Positions 7,004 through 22,850 of a stretch of DNA of 64,000 bases are shown in pieces. Under the pieces are notes generated by a model, which saw only the letters and a program-made list of their open reading frames with translations, made no database searches and was not told where the DNA came from. The translations under genes and the position numbers were made by a program. This DNA is from Minisyncoccia bacterium (GTDB lineage Bacteria > Patescibacteriota > Minisyncoccia > Phycocordibacterales > UBA9973): positions 2,232-66,231 of the forward strand of contig JBBSBF010000001.1 in assembly GCA_038251535.1 (NCBI GenBank). The letters are read 5' to 3'. How positions within the stretch are numbered: the stretch's first letter is position 1; each line of letters opens with the position of its first letter.

Positions 7004-7752
7004 TTCGTGAGCATAGCACGAATGTAGGCTTTGGTCTCATCGATGTTTTTGACCGACACGCACTCGATACCAGAAGCCTTCGCTGGCTCATCGTTGCCAC
7101 CCGGGTAGAGCGCATCGCCAACAAAGACCATATCGGAGATGGGTATCGATAAAACTTTTGATAATTGCTGGATGCCATACGTTTTGTCGATACCTTTTTT
7201 AGTAATATCAATAGAATTCGTTCCTCCTATATGCACTGTGTATTGTGGTAAACGTTTTATGAAATAAAAAATAATTTCTTTCCGCTTTGATCTATCTGGA
7301 TCCCACGAGCTCTTTTCCTGAAGTGGAGCATCTTGGCCGAGCGCTGAAAAGGTTATTTGTGAACCCCGGTCCTCTATTTGTGCGCCGTGAATTTTTTCAG
7401 GAATATTGCCAGTTGCAAAGGCAGCTTCGTGCAGCATTGTAGTAATCTCGTCACTTTCGACGAGTGATAGCGTGTGCATATAAATTTCTTGCCAATCATT
7501 ATGTGTGTAGCGATACATGGCCGTGCCAGATGTTGGAAGGAGGTATAGTTTTTGGTACTGGAGAGAGGAGAGTGGTAATTGTGAGAGAAACTGTTTTTTG
7601 TACTGGGCGAGTGATCCACCACTCATCACGGCGATATAGTGGTCGTGATCAATCAACTGCTTCAACAATGTTGCCATCTCGCTATCGAGAGGTTGCTTGC
7701 TTTCGGCGAGCGTACCATCGAGATCAAATACGATTACTTTTTTGGACATCAT
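7000..7752 (-). CDS. HAD-superfamily phosphatase (IIB/PMM-like), possibly a sugar-phosphate phosphatase
   Basis: Motif I VIVFDLDGTL; motif IV FVGDALYPGGND; ~250 aa; 4-bp overlap with engB. Confidence 0.7.
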   Translation of the reverse strand: MMSKKVIVFDLDGTLAESKQPLDSEMATLLKQLIDHDHYIAVMSGGSLAQYKKQFLSQLPLSSLQYQKLYLLPTSGTAMYRYTHNDWQEIYMHTLSLVESDEITTMLHEAAFATGNIPEKIHGAQIEDRGSQITFSALGQDAPLQEKSSWDPDRSKRKEIIFYFIKRLPQYTVHIGGTNSIDITKKGIDKTYGIQQLSKVLSIPISDMVFVGDALYPGGNDEPAKASGIECVSVKNIDETKAYIRAMLTK

Positions 7753-7757
7753 AACTA

Positions 7758-9650
7758 TTAGGAAAGTGTTTCTAGAATTTTGGATAATTTGGCAGTTGCA
7801 ACACCGGTGACTGCATCAGCAGCGCCGTAGTAAATATATAGTGTATTACCTCGTTTGACCAAGCCACATGGGAACACAACGTTGTTAACGATACCGTTCA
7901 ATTCATAAAACGCCTTTGGTTCAAACAACGGCAGTGCAGTTCGTGCCAAAACAATGGTCGGATCATCGAGATCGAGGAGTGCGGCACCGACGCTGTAGAC
8001 ACTGGTCGGGGATACGCCGTGATACAAGAGCAACCAACCTTTTTTTGTCTTGATCGGCGGAGCACTGATACCAACTTTTCTCCCGTCCCACATTCCACGT
8101 CTCGGAGAAAGTACTTCGATACAGCGCGATACTTTTTCTTTTGAAAAATCAAATGTGGGGAGAACGTCTGCGCAGATGTTGCTATCGATACGGTGCAGCA
8201 CGACGTATCCTGCCTTTGTTTTTCCTGGAACGATGCACCCGTCTTTGTCATCAACTGATGGAGGAGTGATCAGTAATGGTTCTGACCAGTTTTTCCATTT
8301 TTTGTCGAGGAAGTCTGCTTTGGAAATAAAACTTGACGCAACTCGAGGTAGATTGCCATCATATGCAGTATAAAAGATATATATGAAATCTCCCATGACG
8401 ACAGCTCTCGGATCTTCACATCCTGAGTTTCCTGGGCGCTGTTTATTTTCATATATTCCCCGAGGTACGTAGATCGGCTTACTTCCTCGTTCGGAAATCG
8501 TAACGCCGTCTGTTGATGCGGCCCATCCAACAGTCGATGTATCATCGTCCGACATTGCTCGATAGAGTATGTAGATAGTACCAGCGAGTTCGATTGCTGC
8601 AGGGTTAAAGACTCCGTGTGCTTCCCACGCTACCTTTGGTCTTGGTGCGAGTATTGGATTGTTGGCAAATCGGGTAACGATGTCTTTCTGTCGGTACATT
8701 GCTCCAATGAGACTCTTTAGGTTTACACTTGCTCTACAGCAGTGGGTGTCTGATCCACCATAGTATATATCGAGCATATCACCGCGAATAATCGCACCTG
8801 AAGGAAAGATAATCCTTGATATGGTGCCGATTTTTTCATAAAAAAGTTCGGGTACCATAAACGGCTTGTTGGTGTTGCCGATGATTTTGCGAGGTTTCTT
8901 GAGATCAAGTAAAAGACTCTGGATACCAAATATTGGAGTACCGTTTCGGTATTCTTGGATATGCGAATAGATCAGGAGCCATCCTTCTTTGGTTTTGACC
9001 GGTGGACTGCCAATCTCTACTTGTTCGTTGTCGTTGTGAGGAATGACGAGTGTACATTCATCAACGTGTTCGTACCAGTTGTTCCAAAAATCCATATCCC
9101 AGAGTTGCTCGATTGTATCAAATTCTGCAACGGCTATCTTGGTATGTGGTCGATCGGTATCGACGGTAAGGAGTGCACAGATTTTTCCATTGATACGCTC
9201 AGGAAATAACGACATTGCCTTTGCGTTAAACGGTGTTACCAGATGTTTTTCTGACACAGTTTCCAAGTCGTCACTGATCGCGAGCGCTACCTTTATGTTG
9301 TCAGGACCAAAGGGAAAGTTAGAGATAGCGGTATAAAAGATGTAATATCTCCCTTCAAACTTTGTCACTCTCGGGTCTTCGCAGCCGTATCGTTCGTAGT
9401 CTTCGTCAGTGGTTATAAATGGTCGTCGATCGGTGAAATCAACACCGTTTGTGCTGACCGCCTTGCCGATGATTGATTTGGGGATGCGTGGTTCGGCCAA
9501 AAGCTCTGGATGCGACATCGCACGATACAACAAGTGAGTAGTTTTTCCAATTTTTATAGGACAGCCGTTAAATGTTGCTTCAGCCTCCCATGGATGTTCG
9601 GGGATAGGTGAGAGTATAGGATTGTGTGGGTATCGGTGGATGGTAAACAT
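7758..9650 (-). CDS. Tandem GH130-family glycoside phosphorylase (two GH130/DUF377 modules, mannoside-phosphorylase-like)
   Basis: Both halves carry FNPAAI/FNGCPI...LYRAMS...GCEDPR...YIFYTAYDG signatures; 630 aa is about twice a single GH130. Confidence 0.75.
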   Translation of the reverse strand: MFTIHRYPHNPILSPIPEHPWEAEATFNGCPIKIGKTTHLLYRAMSHPELLAEPRIPKSIIGKAVSTNGVDFTDRRPFITTDEDYERYGCEDPRVTKFEGRYYIFYTAISNFPFGPDNIKVALAISDDLETVSEKHLVTPFNAKAMSLFPERINGKICALLTVDTDRPHTKIAVAEFDTIEQLWDMDFWNNWYEHVDECTLVIPHNDNEQVEIGSPPVKTKEGWLLIYSHIQEYRNGTPIFGIQSLLLDLKKPRKIIGNTNKPFMVPELFYEKIGTISRIIFPSGAIIRGDMLDIYYGGSDTHCCRASVNLKSLIGAMYRQKDIVTRFANNPILAPRPKVAWEAHGVFNPAAIELAGTIYILYRAMSDDDTSTVGWAASTDGVTISERGSKPIYVPRGIYENKQRPGNSGCEDPRAVVMGDFIYIFYTAYDGNLPRVASSFISKADFLDKKWKNWSEPLLITPPSVDDKDGCIVPGKTKAGYVVLHRIDSNICADVLPTFDFSKEKVSRCIEVLSPRRGMWDGRKVGISAPPIKTKKGWLLLYHGVSPTSVYSVGAALLDLDDPTIVLARTALPLFEPKAFYELNGIVNNVVFPCGLVKRGNTLYIYYGAADAVTGVATAKLSKILETLS

Positions 9651-9673
9651 GCTGTTTGTTTTTTATTAAATAA

Positions 9674-10813
9674 TCATGCGCTCGTATCGCGGCCGTACTT
9701 CTTGAGCCACTTGAGGAGTTCGTCGAGTGGAGTGCGTGCGACGCATACATATTTGTCGCCACCACCATAGTACACGAACAAATCTGATTCATGAACGACT
9801 GCACCAGAAGCGTAGATCACTCCAGGCTTTGAATCATTTTCATAATGAAATTCTGGAGAAAGTATGGGGTGCGGAGAGCGATAGAGAATCTTTTGAGGAT
9901 TATCGATGTCGAGTATCATTGCACCAAGTTTGTATTTATTTGGATCGCGATGATCCATAGAGTGATACAACAGTAGCCATCCCAAACTGGTCTTGATCGG
10001 CGGAGCACCGGCACCACGGACCATCGAGTCCCAGTGCTCCTTTCGTCCGTAGTAGTTGTGAGCGCCATCGTGCGGGGGACGGCTTTTGATCGGAGAAAGT
10101 TCGAGGGTACGTACATCCTCGACATACTCCACGAGGATTTCTGGTGAGATGCCGTGAAGTATTGCAAATTTTCCATGTATTTTTTCTGGAAAGAGTGACC
10201 AGTTTTTATGTGGTTCGCCTTTTGGAGATATAAGGATAGGCTTTGCCCAATCCCATCGGTTTTGTTTCAAGTCATCGAGTGATATAGAAGTAAGAGCAAC
10301 TCGTATCGATTGCCATCCTTCAAATGCGACATAGGTCATGTACACTCGACCGTCTATCACTACCATTTTTGGATCTTCACATCCTGCCCAACCTCCACCG
10401 GAACCGTAGAGTACTTGGTCGTATGTTTGCTCAACAGAAGGGATTATTGAATTTTCAGGAGTTGCTTGATATACCGGATACGGAGAGCGCTCACTAAAGG
10501 TAACACCGTCCTGCGAAGTACTATGTCCGATCTGAGATGTACCACCGCGACCAATAGCACGATAAAAAAGGTGAATCATCCCATTGTCGTCTTTGACTGC
10601 GGCGGGATTAAAGGTACTTTCGTTTTCCCATTCGCGATGTTCTTGGGGACTGACTAGTGGGTTGCATACCTCACGAGTCAAATGATAAGGGGGTGCGTTT
10701 TTACTACTAGATTTGCGACGTATCCTGCGCAAGACATACGAAATCGCAAAAATGCAAAACAAAAATGCAAGCAGCACTAAAAAAAATATGTTTGAAAACA
10801 GGGATTCAATCAT
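9674..10813 (-). CDS. Membrane-anchored GH130-family glycoside phosphorylase
   Basis: N-terminal TM IFFLVLLAFLFCIFAISYVL followed by FNPAAVKDDNGMIHLFYRAIG...GCEDPKMV...YMTYVAFEG. Confidence 0.75.
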   Translation of the reverse strand: MIESLFSNIFFLVLLAFLFCIFAISYVLRRIRRKSSSKNAPPYHLTREVCNPLVSPQEHREWENESTFNPAAVKDDNGMIHLFYRAIGRGGTSQIGHSTSQDGVTFSERSPYPVYQATPENSIIPSVEQTYDQVLYGSGGGWAGCEDPKMVVIDGRVYMTYVAFEGWQSIRVALTSISLDDLKQNRWDWAKPILISPKGEPHKNWSLFPEKIHGKFAILHGISPEILVEYVEDVRTLELSPIKSRPPHDGAHNYYGRKEHWDSMVRGAGAPPIKTSLGWLLLYHSMDHRDPNKYKLGAMILDIDNPQKILYRSPHPILSPEFHYENDSKPGVIYASGAVVHESDLFVYYGGGDKYVCVARTPLDELLKWLKKYGRDTSA

Positions 10814-10818
10814 AGAGT

Positions 10819-11172
10819 TTATGTTCGACCATACAGGTCTTCGACTCTAGTAATATCATTTTCATCAAAATCCCCGTACGCAATCTCAAGTACAACCAAC
10901 GGTTCAGTGTTTGCCTGGAGTCGATGGAGCATGTCACGAGGAATGGCATAATCACCTCCAACGATGATATCGGCAGTGGATAGTCCGATCGTAATAGTTC
11001 CGTTACCCGATATAACATGCCATTGTTCATCGCGCTTGCTATGTTTTTGTAAACTAAACGCTTGACCGCGCTCTATAGTCAGCAACTTTACAGTCAGTGG
11101 TGCGTTGTGTACAAAGGTTATAAATTTCCCCCATGGTCTTTCTTCGGTTACTGGTTTTGAAGTTCCATCCAT
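10819..11172 (-). CDS. Cupin-fold protein, type II phosphomannose-isomerase C-terminal-domain-like
   Basis: ERPWGKFITF...ERGQAFSLQKHSKRDEQWHVISGNGTITIG cupin motifs; 117 aa. Confidence 0.65.
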   Translation of the reverse strand: MDGTSKPVTEERPWGKFITFVHNAPLTVKLLTIERGQAFSLQKHSKRDEQWHVISGNGTITIGLSTADIIVGGDYAIPRDMLHRLQANTEPLVVLEIAYGDFDENDITRVEDLYGRT

Positions 11173-11251
11173 GCTTTATTTTACTATAAAACATAGCGCT
11201 TTGTACACAATATCCCCACCTATTTTTTCTGTGGTAGTCTACAATACTCGT

Positions 11252-11671
11252 ATGAAATTATCGGACATCATGATATTTGCAAAAAGACGAAGTCTGAGAA
11301 GAATGGTTCGTCGAAAAAAGGCACCCAAACCCATACCTATCGAGGTTCAGCGTGCCGCTCGAGTGCTCGTTCATCAAAAACTCGCGCAGTTCAACCTGTC
11401 GTATGCTTTTCAGTACCATAGAGTGGCGATACGAAACCAGTCGACTCGATGGGGGAGCTGTTCGAGTAAGGGAAATCTCAATTTTAACTACCGCATCATT
11501 TTTTTACCGCCCGAACTCCAAGACTATCTGATCGTTCACGAGCTTTGCCATCTCAAAGAACTCAATCATGGGAAGAAATTTTGGGAGTTGGTATCACAGA
11601 CGATCCCAGACTACGAACGACGCAAAAAAGCGCTGCACTCGATGGATCGTATGATTGGACACCATGCATAA
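11252..11671 (+). CDS. YgjP/DUF45-family zinc metallohydrolase
   Basis: WGSCSSKGNLNFNYRIIFLP...LIVHELCHLKELNHGKKFWELV (HExxH). Start chosen at MKLSD within the 11105 ORF, because the upstream part overlaps the cupin gene on the other strand. Confidence 0.75.
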   Translation: MKLSDIMIFAKRRSLRRMVRRKKAPKPIPIEVQRAARVLVHQKLAQFNLSYAFQYHRVAIRNQSTRWGSCSSKGNLNFNYRIIFLPPELQDYLIVHELCHLKELNHGKKFWELVSQTIPDYERRKKALHSMDRMIGHHA

Positions 11672-11686: not shown

Positions 11687-12052
11687 ATGAGTTCAAAACG
11701 AATACTCCTCCTGTGTACGCTACTGGTACTTGTCCTCTATGTAGTAGAGGTACGAAAGGAAAGCAATATTTCAACTGTTATTCCGTCAATTGAAACAACG
11801 ACCAACTATGATGAGGGCGAAACAGTTGAAAAATACATTCGAACGCTCGATGTGACAACCTTGACGGGGGTTAATCCTGTACTGGGTGGGAACATGTATC
11901 TCACAGCGGTCAGAGTGGATACGCTGTCCCATACTGCTGTGATCGAGTACGAAGATGGACACATTGCGGGGAACGCATCGATTTCTTATACCTTTGATTC
12001 GGTGACTGGGGGAGTGACTGTCGTCAAAGTTACCCCGGAGAGTACCCAATAG
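11687..12052 (+). CDS. Hypothetical exported protein (N-terminal signal/TM)
   Basis: MSSKRILLLCTLLVLVLYVV hydrophobic N-terminus; no recognisable domain. Confidence 0.45.
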   Translation: MSSKRILLLCTLLVLVLYVVEVRKESNISTVIPSIETTTNYDEGETVEKYIRTLDVTTLTGVNPVLGGNMYLTAVRVDTLSHTAVIEYEDGHIAGNASISYTFDSVTGGVTVVKVTPESTQ

Positions 12053-12108
12053 TACATTTGGTAGAAACTTGTGTATAATTGAGCTATTAGCAATAAATCG
12101 TAAATTGT

Positions 12109-12471
12109 ATGCAAGTAATATTTTTAATCGGACGAATTCTCCTCGGTGGATACTTTCTCTATAGCGGATACAATCACTTCGCAAACCTCGCAGGGATGAC
12201 TGGCTATGCAAAAATGAAGCGTGTGCCTATGGCAAAGGCATCAGTGATCATCAGTGGTGCCATGCTTGCGCTTGGCGGGTTAGCCATCCTTGCGAACCGA
12301 TTTGCAATCCTCGGGATGCTCCTCCTTGTTCTCTTTTTGATCCCAACGACATTTATGATGCATGCCTTTTGGAAGGAACAGGATCCTGCAGCTCGGATGA
12401 CAGAACGTGTCAGCTTTATGAAAAACATCGCAATCCTCGGTGCACTCCTCCTTCTTGTTTCGATTGGATAA
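12109..12471 (+). CDS. DoxX-family membrane protein
   Basis: RILLGGYFLYSGYNHF...; four TM segments; ~120 aa. Confidence 0.7.
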   Translation: MQVIFLIGRILLGGYFLYSGYNHFANLAGMTGYAKMKRVPMAKASVIISGAMLALGGLAILANRFAILGMLLLVLFLIPTTFMMHAFWKEQDPAARMTERVSFMKNIAILGALLLLVSIG

Positions 12472-12496
12472 ATGATCAAAATAATAGAGAAATAAA

Positions 12497-12519
12497 AAAA
12501 GCCACCTGTGGTGGCTTTC
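12497..12519. terminator. Bidirectional hairpin terminator
   Basis: aaaaaaagccacc-tgt-ggtggctttc between convergent genes. Confidence 0.65.
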
Positions 12520-12529
12520 AAATACTTTT

Positions 12530-12751
12530 TTAACCATGGGGAATGGGATTTCGCATTTCTGTTTTATCACATTTGTGACAAATATGTTTCCGGAAATACA
12601 CCGGCGAGCCATTTCTCTTGGATTTTCTACACGTTGTATCTCTACTAATCATATGCCATTCGTGCTCGCAAAACATTTGAATAATGATGCGGTGGAATAT
12701 AGTTTTATACCCCCGTATGGGATATGAAGCTTGACCTATAGTTACTCCCAT
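12530..12751 (-). CDS. Small Cys/His-rich (zinc-ribbon-like) protein, hypothetical
   Basis: ...CEHEWH...CRKS...CHKCDK...; convergent on the 12497 terminator. Confidence 0.35.
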   Translation of the reverse strand: MGVTIGQASYPIRGYKTIFHRIIIQMFCEHEWHMISRDTTCRKSKRNGSPVYFRKHICHKCDKTEMRNPIPHG

Positions 12752-12996
12752 AATTTGTTAATTTAGTTTTCTTCCATATTACATCTTTCACATTTTTTAT
12801 CAATAACAAAAAAGTCACCAACAGCAGGGGGATTTAGTCCAATTATTTATTTCTTTCTCATCACGAGTAGTGCAAATCCGAAAATCAATCCTAATACTGA
12901 CCAGAAAATTCCGTATTTTTAAATATCCCCTATTGGTCAGACCTGTAGGAGAAGTAGCGAGGGTAGGAATGGTGGGTACGGTGGCCTGGTATACTG

Positions 12997-14688
12997 GTGG
13001 AGATGACTCAATCTCAAGCACTCGATATATTGAAAACAGGGGCAAATGTTTTTTTAACTGGAGAACCCGGGTCTGGCAAGACTCATACGGTCAACGTCTA
13101 TGTGGAGTATCTGCGCGCGCATGGGATCGAACCAGCGATCACTGCGTCGACCGGTATTGCTGCGACACACATTCATGGGCAGACGATTCATTCGTGGAGT
13201 GGTATCGGGATCAACCGTACACTTTCACCGTACGATATCGATCGTATTGCAACCACCGAACACGTCGTCAAACGAATACAAAAAACAAAAGCGCTCATTA
13301 TCGATGAGATCTCAATGATCGATGCTACCACACTTGATATGGTCGATACTATTCTTCGAGCGATCAAGCAAAACGATGAGCCATTTGGTGGTATACAGAT
13401 CGTGATGGTGGGGGATTTTTTTCAACTGCCACCGATCACACAAGTAGGGCAACAACCACACTTTGCTTTTGTAGCCTCAGTGTGGGGTCGGATGAAGCCA
13501 GTCATTTGTTATTTGACCGAACAACATCGCCAACGAGATACTGAGTTTCTCTCCCTTCTCTCTGCAATACGAAAAAATACCTATGGTCCAGAAGATCACC
13601 GTGTTATCGAACGCAAGCTCTATCAACCAACTGACGATGTCATCCATGACTTTACTGCAACACGATTGTTTTCTCACAATAAAAATGTCGACGCGATCAA
13701 CACCGTAGAGCTCAACAAACTACCGACTCTTTCAACGTGTTTTCTGATGCAAAGCAAGGGGAGGGAAACACTTGTCGCGCAATTAAAAAAGGGTTGTCTT
13801 TCTCCCGAAGAACTCGAACTAAAGATCGGTGCAGTGGTCATGTGTACAAAAAACAACCAACAAAAGGGCTATGCAAATGGGACTCTGGGCACGGTCCTTG
13901 GATTTGAGCCGGGAACGAAGTTTCCCATTATCGAAACAAAAGATGGCATACGTATCACGATCGAACCAGCAGAATGGATCATCGAAGAAAACGGTAAAAC
14001 AAAGGCAATGATTACGCAAGTCCCGCTTCGGCTCGCGTGGGCTATTACGATTCACAAAAGTCAGGGAATGAGTCTCGATGCGGCAGTGATGGATCTGCGA
14101 GATGTCTTTGAATACGGACAAGGATACGTTGCACTCTCGCGAGTCCGCTCACTCGACGGGCTACATATTTTGGGTTGGAATAGACAGGCGTTTTTGGTCC
14201 ACCCTCAGATTTTGGAAAAAGATCAGTATTTTATGCGTCAATCCGAATCAGCGGCTGCGATTTTTGGCGATATGTCGCAGATAGAACGAGAAAAGATGCA
14301 GCACAACTTTGTCCTCGCCTCAGGAGGAGTGGTAGATCGTGTTAAGAAGAAATCAACAAAGAAAGTTGCAGGGGATACGTTTCAAACAAGTCTTGCGCTT
14401 GTGTTACAAGGCAGGTCTATCGGAGAGATTGCAAAGGAGCGCAGCTTGGCCCCCGTGACCATCATTGGGCATATAGAAAAACTCGTACAACAACGTAGGT
14501 TGGGCGTTGCCGATATTATCTATCTTATCGATAAAAAAACGTTCAGTGGATTTGAAGATATCAAGGCGACATTTGTAAGTCTGGACACATCTAAACTTAC
14601 TCCGATACGTGAACATTACAATGGTAAGTTTACCTATGAACAATTGCGGTTCGCTCGGATGCTGATAGAGCTCGGTTATCCACACTAA
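12997..14688 (+). CDS. PIF1/RecD-like SF1 ATP-dependent DNA helicase with C-terminal HTH
   Basis: Walker A LTGEPGSGKTH; Walker B LIIDEISMID; GDFFQLPPI; UvrD_C_2-like ITIHKSQGMSLD; C-terminal helix-turn-helix region. Confidence 0.85.
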   Translation: MEMTQSQALDILKTGANVFLTGEPGSGKTHTVNVYVEYLRAHGIEPAITASTGIAATHIHGQTIHSWSGIGINRTLSPYDIDRIATTEHVVKRIQKTKALIIDEISMIDATTLDMVDTILRAIKQNDEPFGGIQIVMVGDFFQLPPITQVGQQPHFAFVASVWGRMKPVICYLTEQHRQRDTEFLSLLSAIRKNTYGPEDHRVIERKLYQPTDDVIHDFTATRLFSHNKNVDAINTVELNKLPTLSTCFLMQSKGRETLVAQLKKGCLSPEELELKIGAVVMCTKNNQQKGYANGTLGTVLGFEPGTKFPIIETKDGIRITIEPAEWIIEENGKTKAMITQVPLRLAWAITIHKSQGMSLDAAVMDLRDVFEYGQGYVALSRVRSLDGLHILGWNRQAFLVHPQILEKDQYFMRQSESAAAIFGDMSQIEREKMQHNFVLASGGVVDRVKKKSTKKVAGDTFQTSLALVLQGRSIGEIAKERSLAPVTIIGHIEKLVQQRRLGVADIIYLIDKKTFSGFEDIKATFVSLDTSKLTPIREHYNGKFTYEQLRFARMLIELGYPH

Positions 14689-14747
14689 TATTTTTATGGG
14701 TACGATTTTGTATTATACTGTAGGTATTATCAGTAAGAAGCATTTTG

Positions 14748-14810
14748 ATGGCAAAAGGAAACAACAGTCAGAAAAAGGAAGCAAAAAAACCGAAGAAGGC
14801 AAAGAAATAA
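14748..14810 (+). CDS. Very small Lys-rich peptide (20 aa), hypothetical
   Basis: MAKGNNSQKKEAKKPKKAKK, followed by its own hairpin terminator at 14841-14869. Confidence 0.25.
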   Translation: MAKGNNSQKKEAKKPKKAKK

Positions 14811-14840
14811 TTTGCCCGTTTCGACAAACCGATATTAAAG

Positions 14841-14869
14841 AAAGACCGTAACGAGCGGTCTTTCTTTTT
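14841..14869 (+). terminator. Rho-independent terminator
   Basis: aaagaccg-taacgag-cggtctttctttttg. Confidence 0.6.
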
Positions 14870-14924
14870 GCGTAATATATGGTAGAGTAATTTCAAACAT
14901 TCACAATTTAAAAAGGAGGAAAAA

Positions 14925-15599
14925 ATGAGTGAACTGACTACGCTCACTAAAGAAGATTACATATTCGCAGATGAGTTGCTTAAGCAAATAGGATATTCAA
15001 TTATCAAGAAGAAAGACAAGAGTCAAGATTTTTTCAGACTAAAACTTGAAGCGCCACGTCGCATTACAGGAAGCGAAATTGGTTTCTATTATTCCAACAA
15101 GGAATACACGGCAAAATTTTGGACATCATTTTTATTTGAGGAAGAGAAATTTCGCGATAAAGGAAAAGATGCATTTTGGCCCATCATTACGCAAGGTGAT
15201 GCGTTAGTATATAGTGCTAAACCAATATATCGTAACGATAGAGAAGCATTACTAAAAGCTCTACGGTATGCGTGGATCAATAAATGGAAAATAGATAATA
15301 TTCCACTGTGTCCATATTGTAATGCTCGAATGATTATCTTTCGAAAGAAAGACACACGATGTTATATGTATGCGTGTAAAAAAATCGAAAGTCACCCTAA
15401 TGGTAAATGGCGGTTTAGAAGTTGGGATTATGGACTTAAAGAAAATGCACAAGCGTTTGTACAAATCAGACGTGATGCGACTGTCAAGTATAAGCAGCGT
15501 ATGAAAGCGCTGGGTAAAAATCCTATTCCTGCAGCAGTACTACGAAAAAGATGGAAGATTGGAAACAATAGTAATTTTATCGAGAATCGTTTTAGGTAA
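14925..15599 (+). CDS. Hypothetical protein with C-terminal CxxC...CxxC zinc-ribbon
   Basis: CPYCNARMIIFRKKDTRCYMYACKK; SD-like aaaggagg upstream; terminator hairpin aagccttgtttgaacagggctttttt at 15605-15630. Confidence 0.5.
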   Translation: MSELTTLTKEDYIFADELLKQIGYSIIKKKDKSQDFFRLKLEAPRRITGSEIGFYYSNKEYTAKFWTSFLFEEEKFRDKGKDAFWPIITQGDALVYSAKPIYRNDREALLKALRYAWINKWKIDNIPLCPYCNARMIIFRKKDTRCYMYACKKIESHPNGKWRFRSWDYGLKENAQAFVQIRRDATVKYKQRMKALGKNPIPAAVLRKRWKIGNNSNFIENRFR

Positions 15600-15657
15600 T
15601 TTCTAAGCCTTGTTTGAACAGGGCTTTTTTTATGTACAATTTGCTATACTAAACCAT

Positions 15658-17562
15658 ATGACCGTTCCGTATGATCCCGAACACATCACGTATTTTGCTG
15701 AAACTGATGCACGCAATCAGCGGATTAAATTTGGCATCAAAAGTCGTGATCGTACACGCCACATGTACGTCATCGGTAAAAGTGGCGTAGGGAAGTCGAC
15801 ACTTTTAGAAAACATGGCGATCCAAGACATCCAGCACGGAGAAGGTGTTGCAGTCCTGGATCCTCACGGAAGCTTTGCTGAAAAGATGCTCGAGTATATC
15901 CCCGAACACCGCATCAAAGACGTCGTGTATTTTGCTCCGTTTGATACGGACAACCCGATATCGTTCAACGTACTCGAAGACGTGGGTGCAGATCGTCGAC
16001 ACCTCGTCGTTTCGGGACTGATGAGTACGTTTAAAAAGATTTGGGTTGATGCATGGAGTGCGCGTATGGAGTACATCCTGACCAACACACTCCTCGCACT
16101 TCTCGAGTATCCAGGGGCAACACTTCTCGGAGTGAACCGCATGCTTTCTGAAAAAGGATTCCGGAAAAAAGTGGTAGAGAACATCACCGATGCGGCGGTC
16201 AAGGCGTTTTGGACTGAAGAATTTGCAAACTATACGGAACGAATGGCAGCAGAGGCAGTGCCCGCAATCCAAAACAAGATTGGGCAGTTCACCGCAAATC
16301 CACTCGTGCGCAACATCATCGGCCAATCCAAATCAACCTTTGATCTACGCAAGGTAATGGATGAACAAAAGATACTGATCATCAACCTCTCCAAAGGACG
16401 CATCGGAGATACCAACACGAGTCTTCTCGGTTCGATGATCATTACCAAGATATATCTTGCAGCCATGAGTCGTGCAGAGCTTTCACAGAGTCGTATGGGA
16501 GGACTACCCAACTTTTATTTCTACGTTGATGAATTTCAATCGTTTGCAAACGAGACGTTTGCCGATATCCTTGCAGAAGCTCGGAAATACAAACTTGCGC
16601 TTATCATTGCGCATCAGTATGTAGCACAAATGGAGGAAAAGGTGCGTGATGCAGTATTTGGAAACGTTGGTACGACGGTGTCGTTTCGCGTGGGACCACT
16701 CGATGCCGAGCTCTTGGAAAAAGTCTTTGCACCACAGTTTACGCAAAACGACATCATCAACCTCGGGATGGCTGAGATTTATCTTTCACTCATGATCAAC
16801 GACATCGGGTCACCACCGTTTTCTGCTCGGACTCTCGCACCCTTGGCGCGTCCTGCTATAACATTTCGCAATGACGCAATCGAATCATCGCGTAGTCAGT
16901 ACGCATTTCCAAAAGAAACAGTAGAAAAAAACATCGCAGAATGGTTTGCCGCAGGTAGCGAGCCGGTGGAGGATAAAACACAAAAGAAAACTCGTTTTGT
17001 AGAGGGTGATCGATCAGTGCAAGCATTTTCTCCGCGACCTTCGTACCCAGAGATACGGACCGCTTCAACAGGTCCTGGACAGACAAAGACCCCGCACACA
17101 TTTCCACCTAAAAAAGTAACACCAGCAACCCATAAACCATTTGCCAAAGCATTGATAAAGCCCGTAGTCTCGCAGGTATCCACAGATTCTCCGGCTCCGC
17201 AATCTGATGTAGTACAAAAAGAAGATAACCCACAGCCGTCTTTGACACTAAAGCATCTCCTGGATTCTCTCGATACTACCGCTCCACCGATAGTAATGAA
17301 AGATAAACCAGAATCCCCATTTGTCGGTGAGAAGCCACTTCGCGAAAGTGTTTCGCCAGTCAAACACGCCGAACGCGGTCCTACAGAGAAAAATCGCGAC
17401 CTTCTCAAAATGGCGCTACAAAAGGCAACTCAGCAACAACCATTGCGGACAGAAAAAACAGAAACTGAAGCAGTGAAAACGGTGTCTGCTGACAGCACAA
17501 CATTAACGGCAAACCACACGAGCGAAGTTTCTTCCGATGCCCTAAGGCAACTATTGGAATAA
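15658..17562 (+). CDS. P-loop ATPase of the VirD4/TraG/HerA-FtsK (DUF87-like) superfamily with a long disordered P/T/S-rich C-terminal tail
   Basis: Walker A VIGKSGVGKSTLLEN; Walker B-like FYFYVDEFQSF; LALIIAHQYVAQ motif; no N-terminal TM; last ~200 aa low-complexity. Confidence 0.6.
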   Translation: MTVPYDPEHITYFAETDARNQRIKFGIKSRDRTRHMYVIGKSGVGKSTLLENMAIQDIQHGEGVAVLDPHGSFAEKMLEYIPEHRIKDVVYFAPFDTDNPISFNVLEDVGADRRHLVVSGLMSTFKKIWVDAWSARMEYILTNTLLALLEYPGATLLGVNRMLSEKGFRKKVVENITDAAVKAFWTEEFANYTERMAAEAVPAIQNKIGQFTANPLVRNIIGQSKSTFDLRKVMDEQKILIINLSKGRIGDTNTSLLGSMIITKIYLAAMSRAELSQSRMGGLPNFYFYVDEFQSFANETFADILAEARKYKLALIIAHQYVAQMEEKVRDAVFGNVGTTVSFRVGPLDAELLEKVFAPQFTQNDIINLGMAEIYLSLMINDIGSPPFSARTLAPLARPAITFRNDAIESSRSQYAFPKETVEKNIAEWFAAGSEPVEDKTQKKTRFVEGDRSVQAFSPRPSYPEIRTASTGPGQTKTPHTFPPKKVTPATHKPFAKALIKPVVSQVSTDSPAPQSDVVQKEDNPQPSLTLKHLLDSLDTTAPPIVMKDKPESPFVGEKPLRESVSPVKHAERGPTEKNRDLLKMALQKATQQQPLRTEKTETEAVKTVSADSTTLTANHTSEVSSDALRQLLE

Positions 17563-17563
17563 T

Positions 17564-18871
17564 ATGAAGTACAGTATCCTCATTCTAATCTTTTGTTGGT
17601 TATTGAGTGCATCGTATGCGAATGCTCAAATACACATCACCGAGATAGCATGGATGGGTACTGCCAACAGTCAGTATTCAGAATGGATAGAGCTATACAA
17701 TGACGCGACAACTTCGGTAAATCTTGCAGGTTGGAAGCTGTACGAATCAAGCAGTACGCTCATCATCGCTCTTTCCAAAACGATTGCAGCGCAAGGGTAT
17801 TTGTTAGTTGAACGAACGACGGCAAGTGCTCCCGATGCAGTACCAGGAGTTGATGATGAGGCAGGTTCTTTTGGTGGTGGAGGACTTGCCAATACTGGTG
17901 AGAAACTCATTCTCAAAGATGCAAATGGGAGTACAGTCGAATCACTGGACTTTAGTAGTGGGTGGCCAGCCGGAGATGCAACAACAAAACAAACGATGCA
18001 GTGGACGGGGAGTGATTGGATTACTGCCGACCCAACCCCAAAGGCACCGACAGCTACCTCACAAGGCACCACTGAGGATACTGTACCGACCGTCGAAGAT
18101 TCCGATCCCATCCCAAAAGTATCTCCCAACAAGCCGTACATTGCATTTGAAATACCACCTGTAGTGTATAGCGGTACCGCACATGAGTACAACGCTCATC
18201 CAGTTTATGAATACAACTATCAGTTTGATACAGGTAACATGTACTGGAACATGGGGGACGCGACGATGTATCGACAAAGCGCAATCGCGCCCGTCGTGCA
18301 CACGTATCAGTTTCCTGGAACGTACACGATCTCGTACTCGTTCGCAGATCCTGAAAACCGCCAACTTCCACTCACTGGCACCAAAAAAATAACCGTCGTA
18401 GCTCCCACGTTATCACTCACCACGCTCAATCACAAAGCACTCGTCATACAAAACAATGCACCACAGCCGATCGATCTAACGGGATGGAAACTCAATACGC
18501 CTGATAAGGTCATAGCGATACCTGACCAAACGATCATCGCCGAAGGAGCAACTATCGCATTACCATTTTCTATACTTTCGATTACGAGCGATACGTATTT
18601 TTCTATCACTGATCCTTCAGGTGTACTCGTGGCAACTACAAAGCCTGGGCAGGTACCAGTTGTAACATCGCGATCTTCAGCGCCTACCACTGTCCTGGCT
18701 GACGAATCAACCCTTACTCCTTCGGCTGAAATTACAGAAAATCCGACAACACCTTCACCAGAAAAAGCTCCAACAAACAAGCGCACCAGGACATATATTC
18801 TTGGTGCGCTTGGTATATTCGTTATAGCCTTGTCGTTACTCCTTGAGCGTTTTATGGCTCGACAGGAGTAG
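17564..18871 (+). CDS. Secreted lamin-tail-domain (LTD) protein with C-terminal membrane anchor
   Basis: Signal peptide; LTD signature ITEIAWMGTANSQYSEWIELYN...GWKL repeated (second LTD near residue 290); C-terminal TM ILGALGIFVIALSLLL. Confidence 0.65.
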   Translation: MKYSILILIFCWLLSASYANAQIHITEIAWMGTANSQYSEWIELYNDATTSVNLAGWKLYESSSTLIIALSKTIAAQGYLLVERTTASAPDAVPGVDDEAGSFGGGGLANTGEKLILKDANGSTVESLDFSSGWPAGDATTKQTMQWTGSDWITADPTPKAPTATSQGTTEDTVPTVEDSDPIPKVSPNKPYIAFEIPPVVYSGTAHEYNAHPVYEYNYQFDTGNMYWNMGDATMYRQSAIAPVVHTYQFPGTYTISYSFADPENRQLPLTGTKKITVVAPTLSLTTLNHKALVIQNNAPQPIDLTGWKLNTPDKVIAIPDQTIIAEGATIALPFSILSITSDTYFSITDPSGVLVATTKPGQVPVVTSRSSAPTTVLADESTLTPSAEITENPTTPSPEKAPTNKRTRTYILGALGIFVIALSLLLERFMARQE

Positions 18872-19604
18872 CAGTTGTAGTCTTGGTTTCTGGGGAAACA
18901 ATGGGGGTAATACTATCGGGTATTGAAGTAGCTTCAACTTCCGTCGTGATTGCATCAACTTCTTTTGAGATGATTATTACTTCTTGGTCAGAAACTTTTT
19001 GAATGGTTGCGTCAACTGCGATGAGTGCGGCGTCGTTGTTTGATCCGTCACTGTTTTCGGTATTTTCGATGACGAGTTTATTTGCTTTGAGCGTTTCCTC
19101 GAGTGATGTAGTTGCACTGAGTGCTGCATTAGGAGCAACGGCACTGAGGGTATTGAGGTCAACTGAAAGGTTTTTGATGTGTGTATCGAGTGCTTTTTGT
19201 ACTGTTGCTTGCTTTGCCTTGGTTAAGGTCTTTGACTCTGCCAATGTTTTTATTTCGTTGACTCGATTTTCTACACGCTTTGCTCCGTAGGCAACTTTTT
19301 CTTGTGGAGTGTTCTGAAAGAAACCTTTTACTTCTTCGTTTACATTGAGTTTGAATGCGTAGAGCGGATCTCCCGGGAGGGCATTGTCAGCAACGGCAGA
19401 GATAGTCCCACCGATAAATATGAAAAACAAAAAACTCGAAAGTGCAATGCGCAAGCCGTGGTAGATGCCGCGTTGCAACAATGAATGACGATATACACTT
19501 TCTTGCTGCATGATGTGCGCAAGGTGCGCGCGTATATGACCACGCTCACTTTCGGAAAGCTTGATATCTTTTACTTGCACAAGTTGTTCAAAATTATATT
19601 TCAT
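18852..19604 (-). CDS. Putative membrane anti-sigma factor
   Basis: Immediately downstream of, and overlapping, the ECF sigma gene; single TM LSSFLFFIFIGGTIS; extracytoplasmic helical domain. Confidence 0.5.
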   Translation of the reverse strand: MKYNFEQLVQVKDIKLSESERGHIRAHLAHIMQQESVYRHSLLQRGIYHGLRIALSSFLFFIFIGGTISAVADNALPGDPLYAFKLNVNEEVKGFFQNTPQEKVAYGAKRVENRVNEIKTLAESKTLTKAKQATVQKALDTHIKNLSVDLNTLSAVAPNAALSATTSLEETLKANKLVIENTENSDGSNNDAALIAVDATIQKVSDQEVIIISKEVDAITTEVEATSIPDSITPIVSPETKTTTATPVEP

Positions 19605-20157
19605 TATATTGTTTTCGTAATTTTTTGATGATCCGGTGTATCTGCACAGTCATAGCATTTACGCTTTTGTTATACAGGAGGGCGATTTCTTCGATAGGTT
19701 TTTCTTCGGTATAGCGCAAAAAGATGATCTGGTAGCTTTCGTCATCGAGGATATCGAGGATTTTGCGGATGTCTTGAATATCATCGTTGCGCAAAATCTC
19801 GTCAGTATCTTTGTTGGACTCCGGGTCATATCCTGCCTCCATCAGCATGTCGAGAGAGCCAGCTTTTGACTTTTTGTAATAATCAATCAGCGCATTTTTG
19901 GCAGCTCTATAAAGAAACGCTTCCGGATACTCGATTTCTTTGCCGGACGAAAGATATACCCACGTTTTTGTGAATGTGTCTTGGGTAATATCAACCGCAA
20001 TAGCGCGAATACCGACGCGAAAGTATATAAAACGGAATATTGCATCTTGGTATTTCTCGACCATTGCCATGAAAACCCCTTCAATATCAGGGCCCTTTTG
20101 TATTGGATCAATCTTATCTTGTGACGATTCAGGAACTTCCACCTTACAAGTATACAC
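19594..20157 (-). CDS. ECF-type RNA polymerase sigma-70 factor
   Basis: Region 2 (FRFIYFRV) and region 4 FLRYTEEKPIEEIALLYNKSVNAMTVQIHRIIKKLR. Confidence 0.8.
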   Translation of the reverse strand: MYTCKVEVPESSQDKIDPIQKGPDIEGVFMAMVEKYQDAIFRFIYFRVGIRAIAVDITQDTFTKTWVYLSSGKEIEYPEAFLYRAAKNALIDYYKKSKAGSLDMLMEAGYDPESNKDTDEILRNDDIQDIRKILDILDDESYQIIFLRYTEEKPIEEIALLYNKSVNAMTVQIHRIIKKLRKQYNEI

Positions 20158-20217
20158 GAACTATGTTCTAAAAACCCCTCTCGTGCGTTGTGCCTTCTGA
20201 CAATGTATACTTATGGC

Positions 20218-21477
20218 ATGAAAATCAAGACCAAAACCCCTCATGTAGTTGTCGTCGGTGGCGGGTTTGCAGGTATTGAGGTAGTGAAGACACTCCGCGC
20301 AATCGATGCAACTGTTGATATTACACTTGTGACAAAAAGTCGTATTTTTGAATACTATCCCGCGCTGTATAAACTGGTCACCGGAGCTCTCCCAATAGAG
20401 GTCTCAGTACCGGTCGAAAAAATAGTTCCAAAAAACAAGGTACATATTGTCTATGCAACATATACTGCATTGGATCAGGAACGACAAGTTATAACGATCA
20501 ATGATGGAGATGATACAACGAGAGAAGTTGCGTATGACTACCTCGTGCTTGCGCTCGGAAGTGAGACCAACTTTTTCAACATCAAAGGCTTGCCCGAACT
20601 TTCGTACAGTTTCAAATCAGTTACTGCAGCGCTCGCACTGAAGCAGCATTTTTGTGAATTGTTTTCCAAAGCGCATACGATGACCAAAGAAATACTCGTC
20701 TCGATGCTCCACGTCCTTATCGTCGGTGCTGGTCCATCAGGAGTAGAGCTTGCGGGGGATTTGCGAAGTTATCTCAGTCGACTTGCGAGAGAATTTGCAG
20801 TTGATCCGGGGCTCGTCACGATTGATCTGATCGAAGCTGCAGGTAGAGTACTACCGTCTATGCCCGAAAAAGTTTCATTCATTGCAGAAGCACGGTTGCG
20901 AAAAATGGGAGTCAACATTTTTGTCAATCGAGCACTTGCTTCCCAAGAAGTCGAAGAAGTCATACTCAAAGATATGTCGATGAACTCACATACGGTGATA
21001 TGGACTGCCGGGACTCGCATCAACACCGCATATACGGCAATCCCCAATATCCAACTAGACGAACATAAACACGTCATAGTGTCAGAAACACTTTCATTAC
21101 CACACGACAATCATGTGTTTATTGCTGGAGATGGCGCGGCGACGAAGTACGGGGGACTCGCACAATCTGCGATCGAGCACGGGAAATACATCGCGATGAC
21201 GATTGACGCAACGATCAAAAATAAGAAAGTCAAACCCTTTGTACCGATCCGACCAACCTTTGTTATCCCGATCGGAGTCGACTGGGCGATTCTCAACTAC
21301 AACAACTTTGTTATGACAGGATTTATTCCCTGGATACTACGAAGTATGGCTGATTTTCGGTATTTTTTGCATATTGTGCCATTGTCGTACGTGTTTGGGG
21401 TTTTTGAACAAGGAAAAAAATACCGCAAAACACAAGGCGGATGCCCGGTACCTCCCACTGAGAAAACGATTTCATAG
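20218..21477 (+). CDS. ndh: Type II NADH dehydrogenase (NDH-2)-like FAD/NAD(P)-binding oxidoreductase
   Basis: PHVVVVGGGFAGIE...; second Rossmann ILVSMLHVLIVGAGPSGVELAG; start at MKIKTK. Confidence 0.75.
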   Translation: MKIKTKTPHVVVVGGGFAGIEVVKTLRAIDATVDITLVTKSRIFEYYPALYKLVTGALPIEVSVPVEKIVPKNKVHIVYATYTALDQERQVITINDGDDTTREVAYDYLVLALGSETNFFNIKGLPELSYSFKSVTAALALKQHFCELFSKAHTMTKEILVSMLHVLIVGAGPSGVELAGDLRSYLSRLAREFAVDPGLVTIDLIEAAGRVLPSMPEKVSFIAEARLRKMGVNIFVNRALASQEVEEVILKDMSMNSHTVIWTAGTRINTAYTAIPNIQLDEHKHVIVSETLSLPHDNHVFIAGDGAATKYGGLAQSAIEHGKYIAMTIDATIKNKKVKPFVPIRPTFVIPIGVDWAILNYNNFVMTGFIPWILRSMADFRYFLHIVPLSYVFGVFEQGKKYRKTQGGCPVPPTEKTIS

Positions 21478-21528: not shown

Positions 21529-22605
21529 ATGAAAGTACAGTTATTTAATAAACCAAAGAAGCAAATACTTTTTGTCCGTTATTTCTTATTATGTTTCTAT
21601 CTACATCAAAAGAAAATAAATACGGAAGGAAAAAAAGCATGGCTACGGGCCATCTTTCTTCAAATCCAATACGGATTGGATATTGTCATTTTTTCATCTA
21701 CCTCCTATATTTCACACAAAACTATAACAAAAGGTAGAAAATGGGAATTTCCGAATGATCTTAATGTAGTTAGTATAGAAAAAAGAAAAGCTAATTATTG
21801 TATGCACTTTTCTTTTAACGAAAATCCGAAAGAGATACTCAATCAAGGAACCGTGTTTTATGTAAAAAAAGGACACTGGTTTATAAAAAGGTTCCCAATC
21901 GAAGAGTTTTTTCGCTCAAACAATATATTTACGTTTGAGACCAGGCCGGTAATTTCAAAAATGAGAGCACTTCCGTTAAGAGGAAGTATTGGTCCAGAAC
22001 AAAAACTAGTTATTGATTATCCAAAGGAAATTGCTGCATTAGAACTTGAGATTAAGAGATTGGAGATTAACAAGGATGAGCGCTTAAAACAATCACCACT
22101 TTCTGATGAAATAGTTGCGTTGAATGATGAGATACAAAAAGCAAAAGAACACCTCTTGTTTTTTGTAAAAAATGGCCATGTTGCATATGAATCAGTCCCT
22201 GCTTTACTTGCGCACTCAAAAATTGAGGATGCTATAGCGCATGAATATGCCAAGAAAATACGCAATCTTGATCTGAGCATTGCTCTAACAGACGCGTCAG
22301 AAATAGTCCCCACTAAGAAGGATCAACTATTTATCACCCAAACAAAAGATTTGGAGGAGCTGGTTAGAAAGAACGATGCTATGCCAGCTATTCACGTTTC
22401 AAAAAAAATAGACACTGATTTCCAGGCTTTATGCAAAAATGCACAGCAGCGCATAGAGAAAAAAGATATGTCATCCGCGAAACTATTGTTTGTTTTTTTG
22501 AAAACCAGGAAAGAAAAAGATTGGGTTTCGTTTAAGGAAAGTGTAATAATTCCCATAAACCACAATTTTTTTCGCCCCCACCGTTATGAGAGGAAAAGTT
22601 CGTAA
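21529..22605 (+). CDS. Hypothetical protein (coiled-coil region); start uncertain
   Basis: Long intact ORF, no recognisable motif; terminator at 22611. Confidence 0.4.
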   Translation: MKVQLFNKPKKQILFVRYFLLCFYLHQKKINTEGKKAWLRAIFLQIQYGLDIVIFSSTSYISHKTITKGRKWEFPNDLNVVSIEKRKANYCMHFSFNENPKEILNQGTVFYVKKGHWFIKRFPIEEFFRSNNIFTFETRPVISKMRALPLRGSIGPEQKLVIDYPKEIAALELEIKRLEINKDERLKQSPLSDEIVALNDEIQKAKEHLLFFVKNGHVAYESVPALLAHSKIEDAIAHEYAKKIRNLDLSIALTDASEIVPTKKDQLFITQTKDLEELVRKNDAMPAIHVSKKIDTDFQALCKNAQQRIEKKDMSSAKLLFVFLKTRKEKDWVSFKESVIIPINHNFFRPHRYERKSS

Positions 22606-22610
22606 CCTAG

Positions 22611-22636
22611 AGCCGCATTCACTGCGGCTTTTTTAT
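22611..22636 (+). terminator. Rho-independent terminator
   Basis: agccgca-ttcact-gcggcttttttatt. Confidence 0.7.
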
Positions 22637-22850
22637 TGTTTAATTTTTCGTAACACCATGGGTATCTTTTTAAAATCATTCATACAATGTTCGCGTAGTC
22701 GACCGTTGTACAGAGCTGCAGCAGGGAACTAACGAAGATGTATCCAATTGAATGCTGCCTTTTTTTCAGTACGGTATATAGCTCAATAAATCGAAGTTTT
22801 CCACAGTCATTATTGTAGACACACAAAAAGTATTTTATAATTTAGTAATA

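Follow-up and report, generated by a model that had tools for sequence, protein, structure and literature searches.

An anchorless VirD4/TrwB-type coupling ATPase and its LTD/PKD surface partner: a conserved predicted gene pair of the Paceibacteria

The genes considered here lie at positions 12997–18871 of a 64,000-nt stretch of DNA from a Minisyncoccia bacterium (contig JBBSBF010000001.1), the whole of which is referred to below as the window and supplies all coordinates. Four open reading frames (ORFs) are confirmed in this region, all on the plus strand and consecutive, as an earlier note on the same DNA had stated; in order they encode a helicase, a 224-residue protein with a zinc ribbon, a P-loop ATPase and a surface protein with lamin-tail domains (LTDs), and it is the last two, as a pair, that form the main subject of this account. 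The window itself is a chromosomal segment of an ultrasmall bacterium of the class Paceibacteria, carrying genes for ClpB, GltX, TopA, DprA, ParB, RelA/SpoT, SerS and BipA as well as six tRNA genes, and in the databases its nearest homologues go by the names Candidatus Paceibacterota, Minisyncoccia and Nomurabacteria. For comparison, at least 80 species-level loci were collected from GTDB representative genomes, together with extra contigs from metagenome assemblies, each locus (designated by L and a number) consisting of the ATPase gene with about 10 kb on either side; statistics for the gene pair refer to 81 species-level Paceibacteria loci, and those for promoter-like boxes and core identity to 83 loci. 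Pfam matches were judged against gathering scores and NCBIfam matches against curated cut-offs.

The ATPase gene begins at the ATG at 15658 and encodes 634 residues, in agreement with database entry P0001; the earlier note had given 635, while its assignment of the protein to the VirD4/TraG/HerA type, and the motifs on which it relied, both stand. Residues 1–430 (15658–16947, plus strand) form a coupling-protein-type P-loop domain with the Walker A motif GKSGVGKST, the Walker B motif YVDE and an AHQ motif, and this core matches the Pfam families TrwB_AAD_bind (2e-11, 43.9 bits against a cut-off of 20.5), T4SS-DNA_transf (2e-9, 37.3 bits against 20.1), TraG-D_C (2e-5, 25.2 bits against 22) and, as a weak pass, DUF87 (2e-6, 28.7 bits against 23.2), there being no match to FtsK_SpoIIIE among its Pfam hits. 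When solved structures were searched with an ATPase profile that included distant plasmid homologues, TrwB ranked first (5.8e-10), followed by DotL (7e-5), HerA (5e-4) and FtsK (2e-3), so that the profile check proposed in the earlier note yields a protein of the VirD4/TrwB type and not of the FtsK type. The spacing between Walker A and Walker B equals that of TrwB and includes a predicted helical insert of roughly 115 residues, residues from about 120 to 237 being predicted as all-helical in a low-confidence AlphaFold model (pLDDT 42, the predicted local distance difference test score), which was built on an alignment of 27 sequences that was both too shallow and too similar. No domain resembling the gamma domain that recognises FtsK-orienting polar sequences (KOPS) was detected in the protein, and its scores against the NCBIfam coupling-protein models fall far below their cut-offs (conju_CD1115, the best, 52.8 bits against 250; SXT_TraD, 47.9 against 366). 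The Pfam profiles and the match to TrwB therefore place the core among the coupling-protein P-loop domains, while the membrane anchor and the neighbourhood of VirB4 or relaxase genes that also characterise coupling proteins are both lacking.

The absence of an N-terminal membrane anchor, which the earlier note had already proposed, follows from the hydropathy of the ATPase, in which no hydrophobic window is found. The ORF can be extended upstream by only 16 codons, at which point it runs into the preceding terminator; wherever the ORF of a relative is complete (81 cases), its start lies within a few codons of the start of the alignment to the window protein, and the N-terminus of the latter coincides exactly with the beginning of the nucleotide-binding domain. 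At the other end of the protein there is a poorly conserved tail of about 204 residues (16948–17562, including the stop codon), in which Pro (11%), Thr (11%), Ser (9%) and Lys abound, much as the earlier note had read it. Among relatives the estimated tail length ranges from 116 to 360 residues, and identity, where it is detectable at all, is 33–46%, with short conserved islands; nearly all of the tails end in an amphipathic motif resembling E[IV]P[ED]xxL[RK]x[IVM]L, of which the window version is SEVSSDALRQLLE. The core, by comparison, is 68–95% identical over the 83 loci (median 70%), and when genome pairs are taken one at a time it proves better conserved than YchF, UDG or any other neighbour compared (in the same pairs, 35–89% for YchF, 63–74% for UDG and 23–51% for the LTD protein). 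More distant homologues occur in phages (29% identity or less), and phrog_5156, which matches at 2e-56, has an N-terminal extension of 390 residues that is absent from the ATPase; neither PADLOC nor PHROGs gives a system-level assignment for the region. An Embleya plasmid carries a homologue that is 30% identical, 812 residues long and endowed with a long N-terminal extension, in a cluster encoding a PrgI-family protein, an ATP-binding protein, the coupling protein, a replication-relaxation protein and an NlpC/P60 protein, and because this homologue thus sits in a conjugation cluster the ATPase family derives from the coupling proteins of monoderm conjugative systems. Taken together, these comparisons identify the ATPase as a homologue of VirD4/TrwB-type coupling proteins that has, to judge from its sequence, lost the membrane domain and gained a long tail that is predicted to be disordered.

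The gene immediately downstream (17564–18871, plus strand) encodes a protein of 435 residues in which Pfam and hydropathy analysis reveal, in order, a signal peptide, an LTD, a Pro/Thr-rich linker, a PKD-like domain, a second LTD, a stalk and a C-terminal membrane helix, followed by a short cytoplasmic tail, LLERFMARQE. The LTD profile is matched in two stretches (7.6e-20, 71.8 bits against a cut-off of 34.3) and PKD_4 weakly (4e-4), while the signal peptide, read from the sequence and its hydropathy, is a hydrophobic N-terminal segment with an Ala-x-Ala-like site (YANA/Q). The profile together with the predicted export signal marks the product as an LTD surface protein, and the earlier description of a secreted, membrane-anchored protein with two LTDs is borne out, with the addition of the PKD-like middle domain, which had gone unmentioned. 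Pfam and NCBIfam find in it only the LTD, PKD and LTD, and no helix-hairpin-helix domain of the ComEA kind. In six relatives (L038, L047, L063, L081, L082 and L084), the corresponding protein has instead a signal peptide followed by HHH_3, PKD and LTD, and the ComEA model TIGR00426 (cut-off 53.1) is passed in the first five of these, at 56–74 bits, with L084 at 51.0. The PKD and second LTD of these helix-hairpin-helix variants align with the window protein (E-values of 4e-10 and 1e-11), and since the genes also occupy the same locus, the ComEA-type domain and the distal LTD evidently share one position in the architecture. The cytoplasmic tails of the partner proteins, too, bear short conserved motifs, LLERFMARQEY in the clade of the window and [DE][DE][FY]x[IL]xE in about 13 others.

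That the two genes belong together is indicated by their arrangement in relatives, in which members of the LTD/PKD family were tracked with an iterated hidden Markov model of the LTD/PKD protein. A family member lies directly 3' of the ATPase gene, on the same strand, in 47 of the 81 loci, the median gap being 3 nt, and 42 of these 47 partners have a C-terminal membrane helix. Among all 52 family hits in the flanks only three lie away from the directly downstream position, two of them in L044 and L049, where the family member is close by. Viewed simply by Pfam, the 67 downstream proteins contain LTD in 44 cases and PKD in 39, the remainder being GT4, Wzy_C and epimerase proteins. The tight same-strand coupling of the pair persists while the genes on either side are reshuffled: outside the window clade (L019–L085) the genes typically found upstream of the ATPase encode MurC, RsmI, an 87-residue ORF, DUF4015 or a penicillin-binding protein (PBP)/YkuD protein, and those typically downstream encode GT4, GT2, Wzy_C, CofD or MurB. 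The ATPase gene followed by the LTD gene is, on this comparative evidence, a conserved chromosomal core feature of the class Paceibacteria, and of the synteny across relatives that the earlier note had suggested checking, it is this pair that displays it across the class, the helicase and the zinc-ribbon gene failing to do so.

Signals read from the DNA suggest that the pair is also transcribed on its own. After the 224-residue gene there is a hairpin at 15605–15626 (−11.3 kcal/mol, z −3.5), and 3' of it an extended −10-like box, TGCTATACT, occupies 15642–15650 on the plus strand and ends 7 nt 5' of the ATPase ATG, while the ATG of the LTD gene lies 1 nt downstream of the ATPase stop codon. 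In 70 of 83 loci a TATA[AC]T box is found within about 0–16 nt of the point where the ATPase gene is estimated to start, frequently directly 3' of a hairpin and T-run. This suggests that TGCTATACT is a separate promoter, leaderless or with a short leader, for the ATPase–LTD unit, and because terminators and promoter-like boxes lie between the genes, the region would comprise four units, namely the helicase gene, a mini-gene described below, the zinc-ribbon gene, and the ATPase and LTD genes together. Conserved gene order and box placement thus mark the last two as a conserved, separately promoted, predicted two-gene operon.

Of the genes that precede it, the helicase (12997–14688, plus strand; 563 residues, although the database copy has 561 and the start is therefore probably at 13003) is, from its Pfam and PHROG matches, of the PIF1/Dda-like superfamily 1B (SF1B) type and is treated here as a neighbour only. 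The earlier description of a PIF1-type enzyme with a C-terminal helix-turn-helix is upheld by matches to PIF1 (6e-37, 127.8 bits), AAA_30, Pif1_2B_dom (31.9 bits) and a C-terminal HTH_40 (9e-16, 58.4 bits), as well as to phrog_325, “Dda-like helicase” (1e-67); motor and 2B/SH3 domain are both present, as expected of the PIF1/Dda-like group, and the RecD2/RecD equivalog models of NCBIfam are not reached (87 against 500 bits). It is widespread in Paceibacteria, with more than 8000 hits, the best 120 of which are about 550–610 residues long apart from two truncated entries. It adjoins the ATPase locus only in the nearest relatives (L001, L006–L008 and L089), however; L094 has it six genes upstream, and a 56%-identical relative has it elsewhere, in surroundings unrelated to these, so that the linkage implied by the earlier note does not extend beyond the immediate clade.

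Between the helicase and zinc-ribbon genes lies the mini-gene (14714–14867, plus strand), which consists of a TATACT box at 14714–14719, an ORF at 14748–14810 encoding the 20-residue Lys-rich peptide MAKGNNSQKKEAKKPKKAKK, and a terminator hairpin at 14837–14867 (−18.4 kcal/mol, z −5.4). It occurs in seven genomes, namely that of the window and those of L001, L006, L007, L008, L010 and L089, with the TATACT box invariant, changes at third codon positions in the ORF and compensatory changes in the hairpin stem, so that the earlier suggestion of a small Lys-rich gene with its own terminator is strengthened by its retention in six other genomes; L010 carries it with no helicase detected at the locus. 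A scan of 12000–21000 against Rfam gave no match.

The 224-residue protein (ORF 14925–15599, plus strand; 14925–15626 with its own terminator at 15605–15626) has no match in Pfam, NCBIfam, PADLOC or PHROGs. It comprises an alpha/beta N-terminal domain, a zinc ribbon and a basic C-terminus, and it is indeed a ribbon protein as previously described, except that the invariant residues of the family are C129, C132, C151 and H157, making the ribbon of the C-C-C-H type and not the CxxC...CxxC type that had been proposed. The gene is of low G+C content (36% overall and 30% at third positions), and the family is rare, with 237 representatives at 50% clustering; a 44%-identical relative is found in L088 in a different gene context. 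In near relatives the slot 5' of the ATPase gene is taken by different, fast-diverging basic proteins of about 185–240 residues (for instance L008, 9231–9947; L094, 9779–10423; L006, 9265–9930), of which that in L008 is a remote homologue of the N-terminal domain of the 224-residue protein (E 7e-8) and that in L001 has no detectable relation to it, while L094 carries a clear member of the zinc-ribbon family three genes upstream of the ATPase. The gene therefore occupies a variable slot, contrary to the linkage that had been supposed, and the low G+C content of the window copy together with the rapid turnover suggests that the slot gene is conflict-related or accessory. Helicase, mini-gene and zinc-ribbon gene are accordingly best described as separately transcribed neighbours, as far as their predicted signals go, lying outside whatever machine the ATPase and its partner form.

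On the other side of the pair, and convergent with the LTD gene, which it overlaps by 20 nt, lies a gene on the minus strand (18852–19604) for a DUF5667 membrane protein (Pfam 2.4e-8; one membrane helix), which is a putative anti-sigma factor. Next to it, also on the minus strand, a gene with a GTG start (19594–20157) encodes a sigma factor of the extracytoplasmic function (ECF) type, with Sigma70_r2 and r4_2 above their cut-offs and a conserved TATACT box just 5' of the GTG. A sigma factor that has no regions beyond 2 and 4, encoded beside a protein with one membrane span, fits the definition of an ECF sigma/anti-sigma pair, the role of the second protein being putative. This pair is linked to the ATPase–LTD pair in 13 loci, in two arrangements, and in L068 it lies directly upstream of the ATPase gene on the same strand. 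Regulation of the ATPase–LTD pair by the ECF sigma factor is possible, and yet the box upstream of the ATPase gene is of the housekeeping type, TGnTATACT, and not of an ECF type; an ECF-type promoter 5' of the ATPase gene was considered and rejected, the conserved element there being this housekeeping-type box.

Some observations on the boxes themselves may be added. Boxes of the form TG-n-TATACT or TATACT lie only about 7–11 nt 5' of the starts of the ATPase and ECF sigma genes (15642–15658 and 20155–20200), and for Pyr_redox_2 an alignment shows a conserved box no more than about 10 nt away from the start codon; no Shine-Dalgarno sequence is visible for the ATPase gene. This arrangement, kept as it is across relatives, suggests that leaderless or very short-leader mRNAs may be widespread in the lineage.

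As to the setting of the four genes, the flanks consist of housekeeping genes and the region is unremarkable in composition (z −0.29 for the tetranucleotide distance, rank 29 of 59). An island origin was rejected on the strength of this ordinary composition and of the backbone synteny with relatives, and with it falls the view of the region as a remnant or island, since the backbone is one of housekeeping genes and the ATPase core exceeds even YchF and UDG in conservation. The search for relaxase, VirB4 or pilus genes recommended in the earlier note turned up none in the window, nor any virB6, and virB4, virB6 and relaxase genes are likewise absent from the annotated recurrent neighbour clusters of the 81 loci.

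Elsewhere in the window there are blocks of a different character. The most deviant composition is that of 21529–26846 (plus strand; G+C content about 0.35–0.38, top-ranked tetranucleotide distance), which holds an unannotated ORF of 358 residues, a right-handed beta-helix protein of 1116 residues and an ORF of 213 residues, and which falls between Pyr_redox_2 and UDG at a point where L001, L003 and L005 have just one small gene, either a methyltransferase gene or a 174-residue ORF. The stretch has the look of an insertion peculiar to this strain, with a large protein among its products. A second deviant block of low G+C content (0.34–0.38), with several short ORFs, lies at about 45000–52000. 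The block at 5106–11671, which lies between GltX and a DoxX-like ORF, is not seen in L089 or L005; in those loci one to four other genes separate GltX from DoxX. The products of the block are an HI0933-like flavoprotein, a GTPase, a HAD phosphatase, a YgjP-like metallopeptidase and two GH130 mannoside phosphorylases, and although the last two suggest that sugars are used, its functions taken together are mixed.

What the ATPase–LTD pair might do can be approached through the systems that it most resembles. With the type IV coupling proteins (VirD4, TrwB of R388, TraD, DotL) the ATPase shares the Walker A and B and Q motifs, and with TrwB in particular the spacing noted above, the insert being predicted as all-helical here; the disordered C-terminal tail of F-plasmid TraD, which ends in a terminal motif, resembles the tail described for the ATPase. 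Unlike them, it lacks the membrane domain at the N-terminus and has neither VirB4 nor relaxase or mating-pair genes nearby; it is conserved to the degree of a housekeeping gene, and its partner is an LTD/PKD surface protein. The competence machinery of monoderm bacteria (ComEA, ComEC, ComFA) follows a comparable logic, an anchored extracellular DNA receptor being combined with a cytoplasmic ATPase motor, and the partners in six species carry the ComEA helix-hairpin-helix domain (TIGR00426); here, however, the motor is coupling-protein-like where ComFA is DEAD-box-like, and the receptor is of LTD-PKD-LTD construction with a C-terminal anchor and no adjacent ComEC. ComB of Helicobacter pylori and the crenarchaeal Ced system provide precedents for ATPases of secretion families in DNA import (PMC11665869, PMC12857230), but these employ VirB4/HerA-like ATPases and dedicated membrane channels, and the ATPase is not a member of CedD, since its NCBIfam score is 32 bits (4e-8) against a cut-off of 600. 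HerA and FtsK/SpoIIIE belong with it to the ASCE (additional strand, catalytic E) P-loop superfamily, as the weak pass for DUF87 also reflects, but they rank below TrwB and DotL, and there is here no NurA or defence partner and no gamma or membrane domain. The partner, finally, resembles ExeM of Shewanella and Xds of Vibrio in having a signal peptide followed directly by an LTD, and NCBIfam reports a weak match to ExeM (1e-5, over the LTD only), whereas the OB-fold and endonuclease/exonuclease/phosphatase (EEP) nuclease domains are absent from the window protein.

The reading tentatively preferred here, at a probability judged to fall somewhat short of even, is that a coupling ATPase has been put to a new use, in concert with a receptor for DNA on the cell surface. 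The surface protein would capture extracellular double-stranded DNA through its distal domain, and the cytoplasmic ATPase, which presumably forms a hexameric ring as other coupling proteins do, would be recruited to the membrane by its tail motif, docking either on the conserved cytoplasmic tail of the partner or on a channel encoded elsewhere (ComEC or of the VirB type); it would then draw the DNA inwards, or process it, at the expense of ATP, the outcome being nucleotide scavenging or transformation in an organism expected to be unable to make nucleotides. That the partner captures DNA, as opposed to serving in adhesion, is suggested by the ComEA domain swap in relatives. Patescibacteria are expected from the literature on the phylum to be unable to synthesise nucleotides (PMC11665869, PMC12102498), and since a Saccharibacterium, the only species examined by genetics in this respect, can grow without ComEC, another nucleotide route is to be expected in the phylum (PMC11665869). 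The reading also fits the finding that only 148 of 5,713 VirD4-like homologues in 2,918 Patescibacteria genomes lie near virB4, in a study which states that exaptation is not ruled out (PMC12102498). The fully developed form of this idea, a hitherto unrecognised import machine in which a soluble hexameric motor of coupling-protein descent, recruited by its tail motif to the cytoplasmic tail of a single-pass LTD/ComEA receptor or to a receptor-gated channel, performs ComEC-independent uptake of DNA from the host or the environment and constitutes the missing nucleotide source, must be considered a long shot.

Several points weigh against the uptake reading, for which the evidence consists of gene context and one domain swap. 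About 40% of loci have no partner directly downstream, and in 32 of 81 the downstream gene is instead a glycosyltransferase, Wzy-like or epimerase gene; the wider neighbourhood is one of cell-envelope biosynthesis (MurC, MurB, penicillin-binding protein, DUF4015), and the adjacency of ATPase and partner could for that reason be a matter of envelope biology or of a gene order passed on by descent. The pair has beside it no gene for a channel, a nuclease or ComEC, which leaves a two-protein import machine incomplete. The match between classes of ATPase tail and classes of partner tail is confounded by phylogeny, and the ATPase ring and all-alpha domain are conjectural given the pLDDT of 42 for the structure model. 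As regards the receptor, LTDs are dispensable for the activity of ExeM and Xds, and the helix-hairpin-helix region of the partners gives weaker matches to T2SSK as well, domains of this kind occurring also in the pseudopilin GspK.

The most substantial of the competing explanations, unlikely but well worth taking seriously, is that the ATPase is a true coupling protein of a distant Patescibacterial type IV secretion system, a soluble ATPase that would deliver protein or DNA substrates via its tail to a VirB4/VirB6 channel, with the LTD protein acting as an adhesin or host-contact factor. The homology to coupling proteins itself, the match to TraG-D_C and the Embleya homologue within a conjugation cluster all accord with this, as does the docking of the F-plasmid TraD tail on TraM, which is a precedent for tail-mediated contact. 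Coupling-protein genes are, moreover, often distant from virB4 (PMC12102498), and monoderm systems use large surface proteins (PMC12857230). Set against these are the want of a membrane domain, the absence of virB4, virB6 and relaxase genes from both the window and the annotated neighbour clusters, and the ComEA swap, which indicates DNA capture and not adhesion; furthermore, only 148 of 5,713 VirD4-like homologues in 2,918 Patescibacteria genomes lie near virB4, and in S. epibionticum the VirD4-like homologue is non-essential whereas the secretion system is essential (PMC12102498). If one turns from secretion to the envelope, the recurrent neighbours (GT4, GT2, Wzy_C, epimerase, DUF4015, GH3) might mean that the ATPase energises some other process there, such as display, turnover or assembly of a surface glycoprotein or S-layer, with no role for DNA, and it is true that LTD and PKD are generic Ig-like surface domains. 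Yet among the characterised relatives of this type of ATPase there are DNA translocases as well as ATPases that couple secretion (TrwB, DotL, HerA, FtsK), a partner with a predicted Sec signal peptide needs no dedicated exporter, and the ComEA-domain variants favour DNA, all of which makes this explanation rather improbable.

Nor is it probable, to a similarly low degree, that the ATPase is a housekeeping cytoplasmic DNA translocase with, for example, an FtsK-like role in segregating the chromosome or handling the nucleoid when the cell divides, whose linkage to the LTD gene and to envelope genes is a matter of inherited gene order. Conservation of the core above that of YchF and UDG, the soluble nature of the protein, the housekeeping-type promoter box and the MurC, MurB, penicillin-binding-protein and RsmI neighbours in many Paceibacteria would all suit such a role, but TrwB and DotL outrank FtsK in the profiles, neither an FtsK_SpoIIIE match in Pfam nor a gamma/KOPS-recognition-like domain was detected, and the coupling at about 3 nt to a fast-evolving exported protein survives the reshuffling of the flanks. 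There remains the proposal of the earlier note, in which all four genes together make up a single module for handling DNA, be it a remnant of conjugation or island, or a defence pair of HerA and helicase, and this is very improbable indeed. All four products might plausibly touch nucleic acids, PADLOC matches the ATPase to mad8 (2.7e-14) and the helicase to RecD-like entries, and the order helicase, mini-gene, slot gene of about 220 residues and ATPase is repeated among the closest relatives. However, with promoter boxes and terminators of their own the genes fall into separate transcription units, outside the nearest clade the helicase either is not adjacent or lies elsewhere, the slot gene differs among relatives, the composition is not that of an island, and helicase and ATPase are both lineage-wide core genes; for a defence pair there are only weak PADLOC hits (those to HerA being 2.6e-6 or worse), and no nuclease partner such as NurA, and no Sir2, relaxase or VirB4 partner, was found. 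What survives of the earlier suggestion of a DNA-uptake module is its application to the ATPase–LTD pair, for which it gains support from synteny and the ComEA swap, and not its four-gene scope.

A search of the literature (for LTD with ComEA, LTD with the candidate phyla radiation (CPR), and FtsK with CPR) found no report of a pairing between a coupling ATPase and an LTD protein. Orphan coupling proteins in Patescibacteria are known as such; what seems to be new is an exapted, anchorless coupling ATPase paired with a partner of the LTD/ComEA type. The present analysis narrows what had been a four-gene, conjugation-like reading to this ATPase–LTD pair. Patescibacteria make up a large share of bacterial diversity, and thousands of their orphan VirD4-like genes have been left without an assigned role in the literature; the pair, which includes one such gene, now offers a concrete and testable candidate. 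If the proposal of an import machine were true, that machine would supply the nucleotides that Paceibacteria are expected to be unable to make for themselves.

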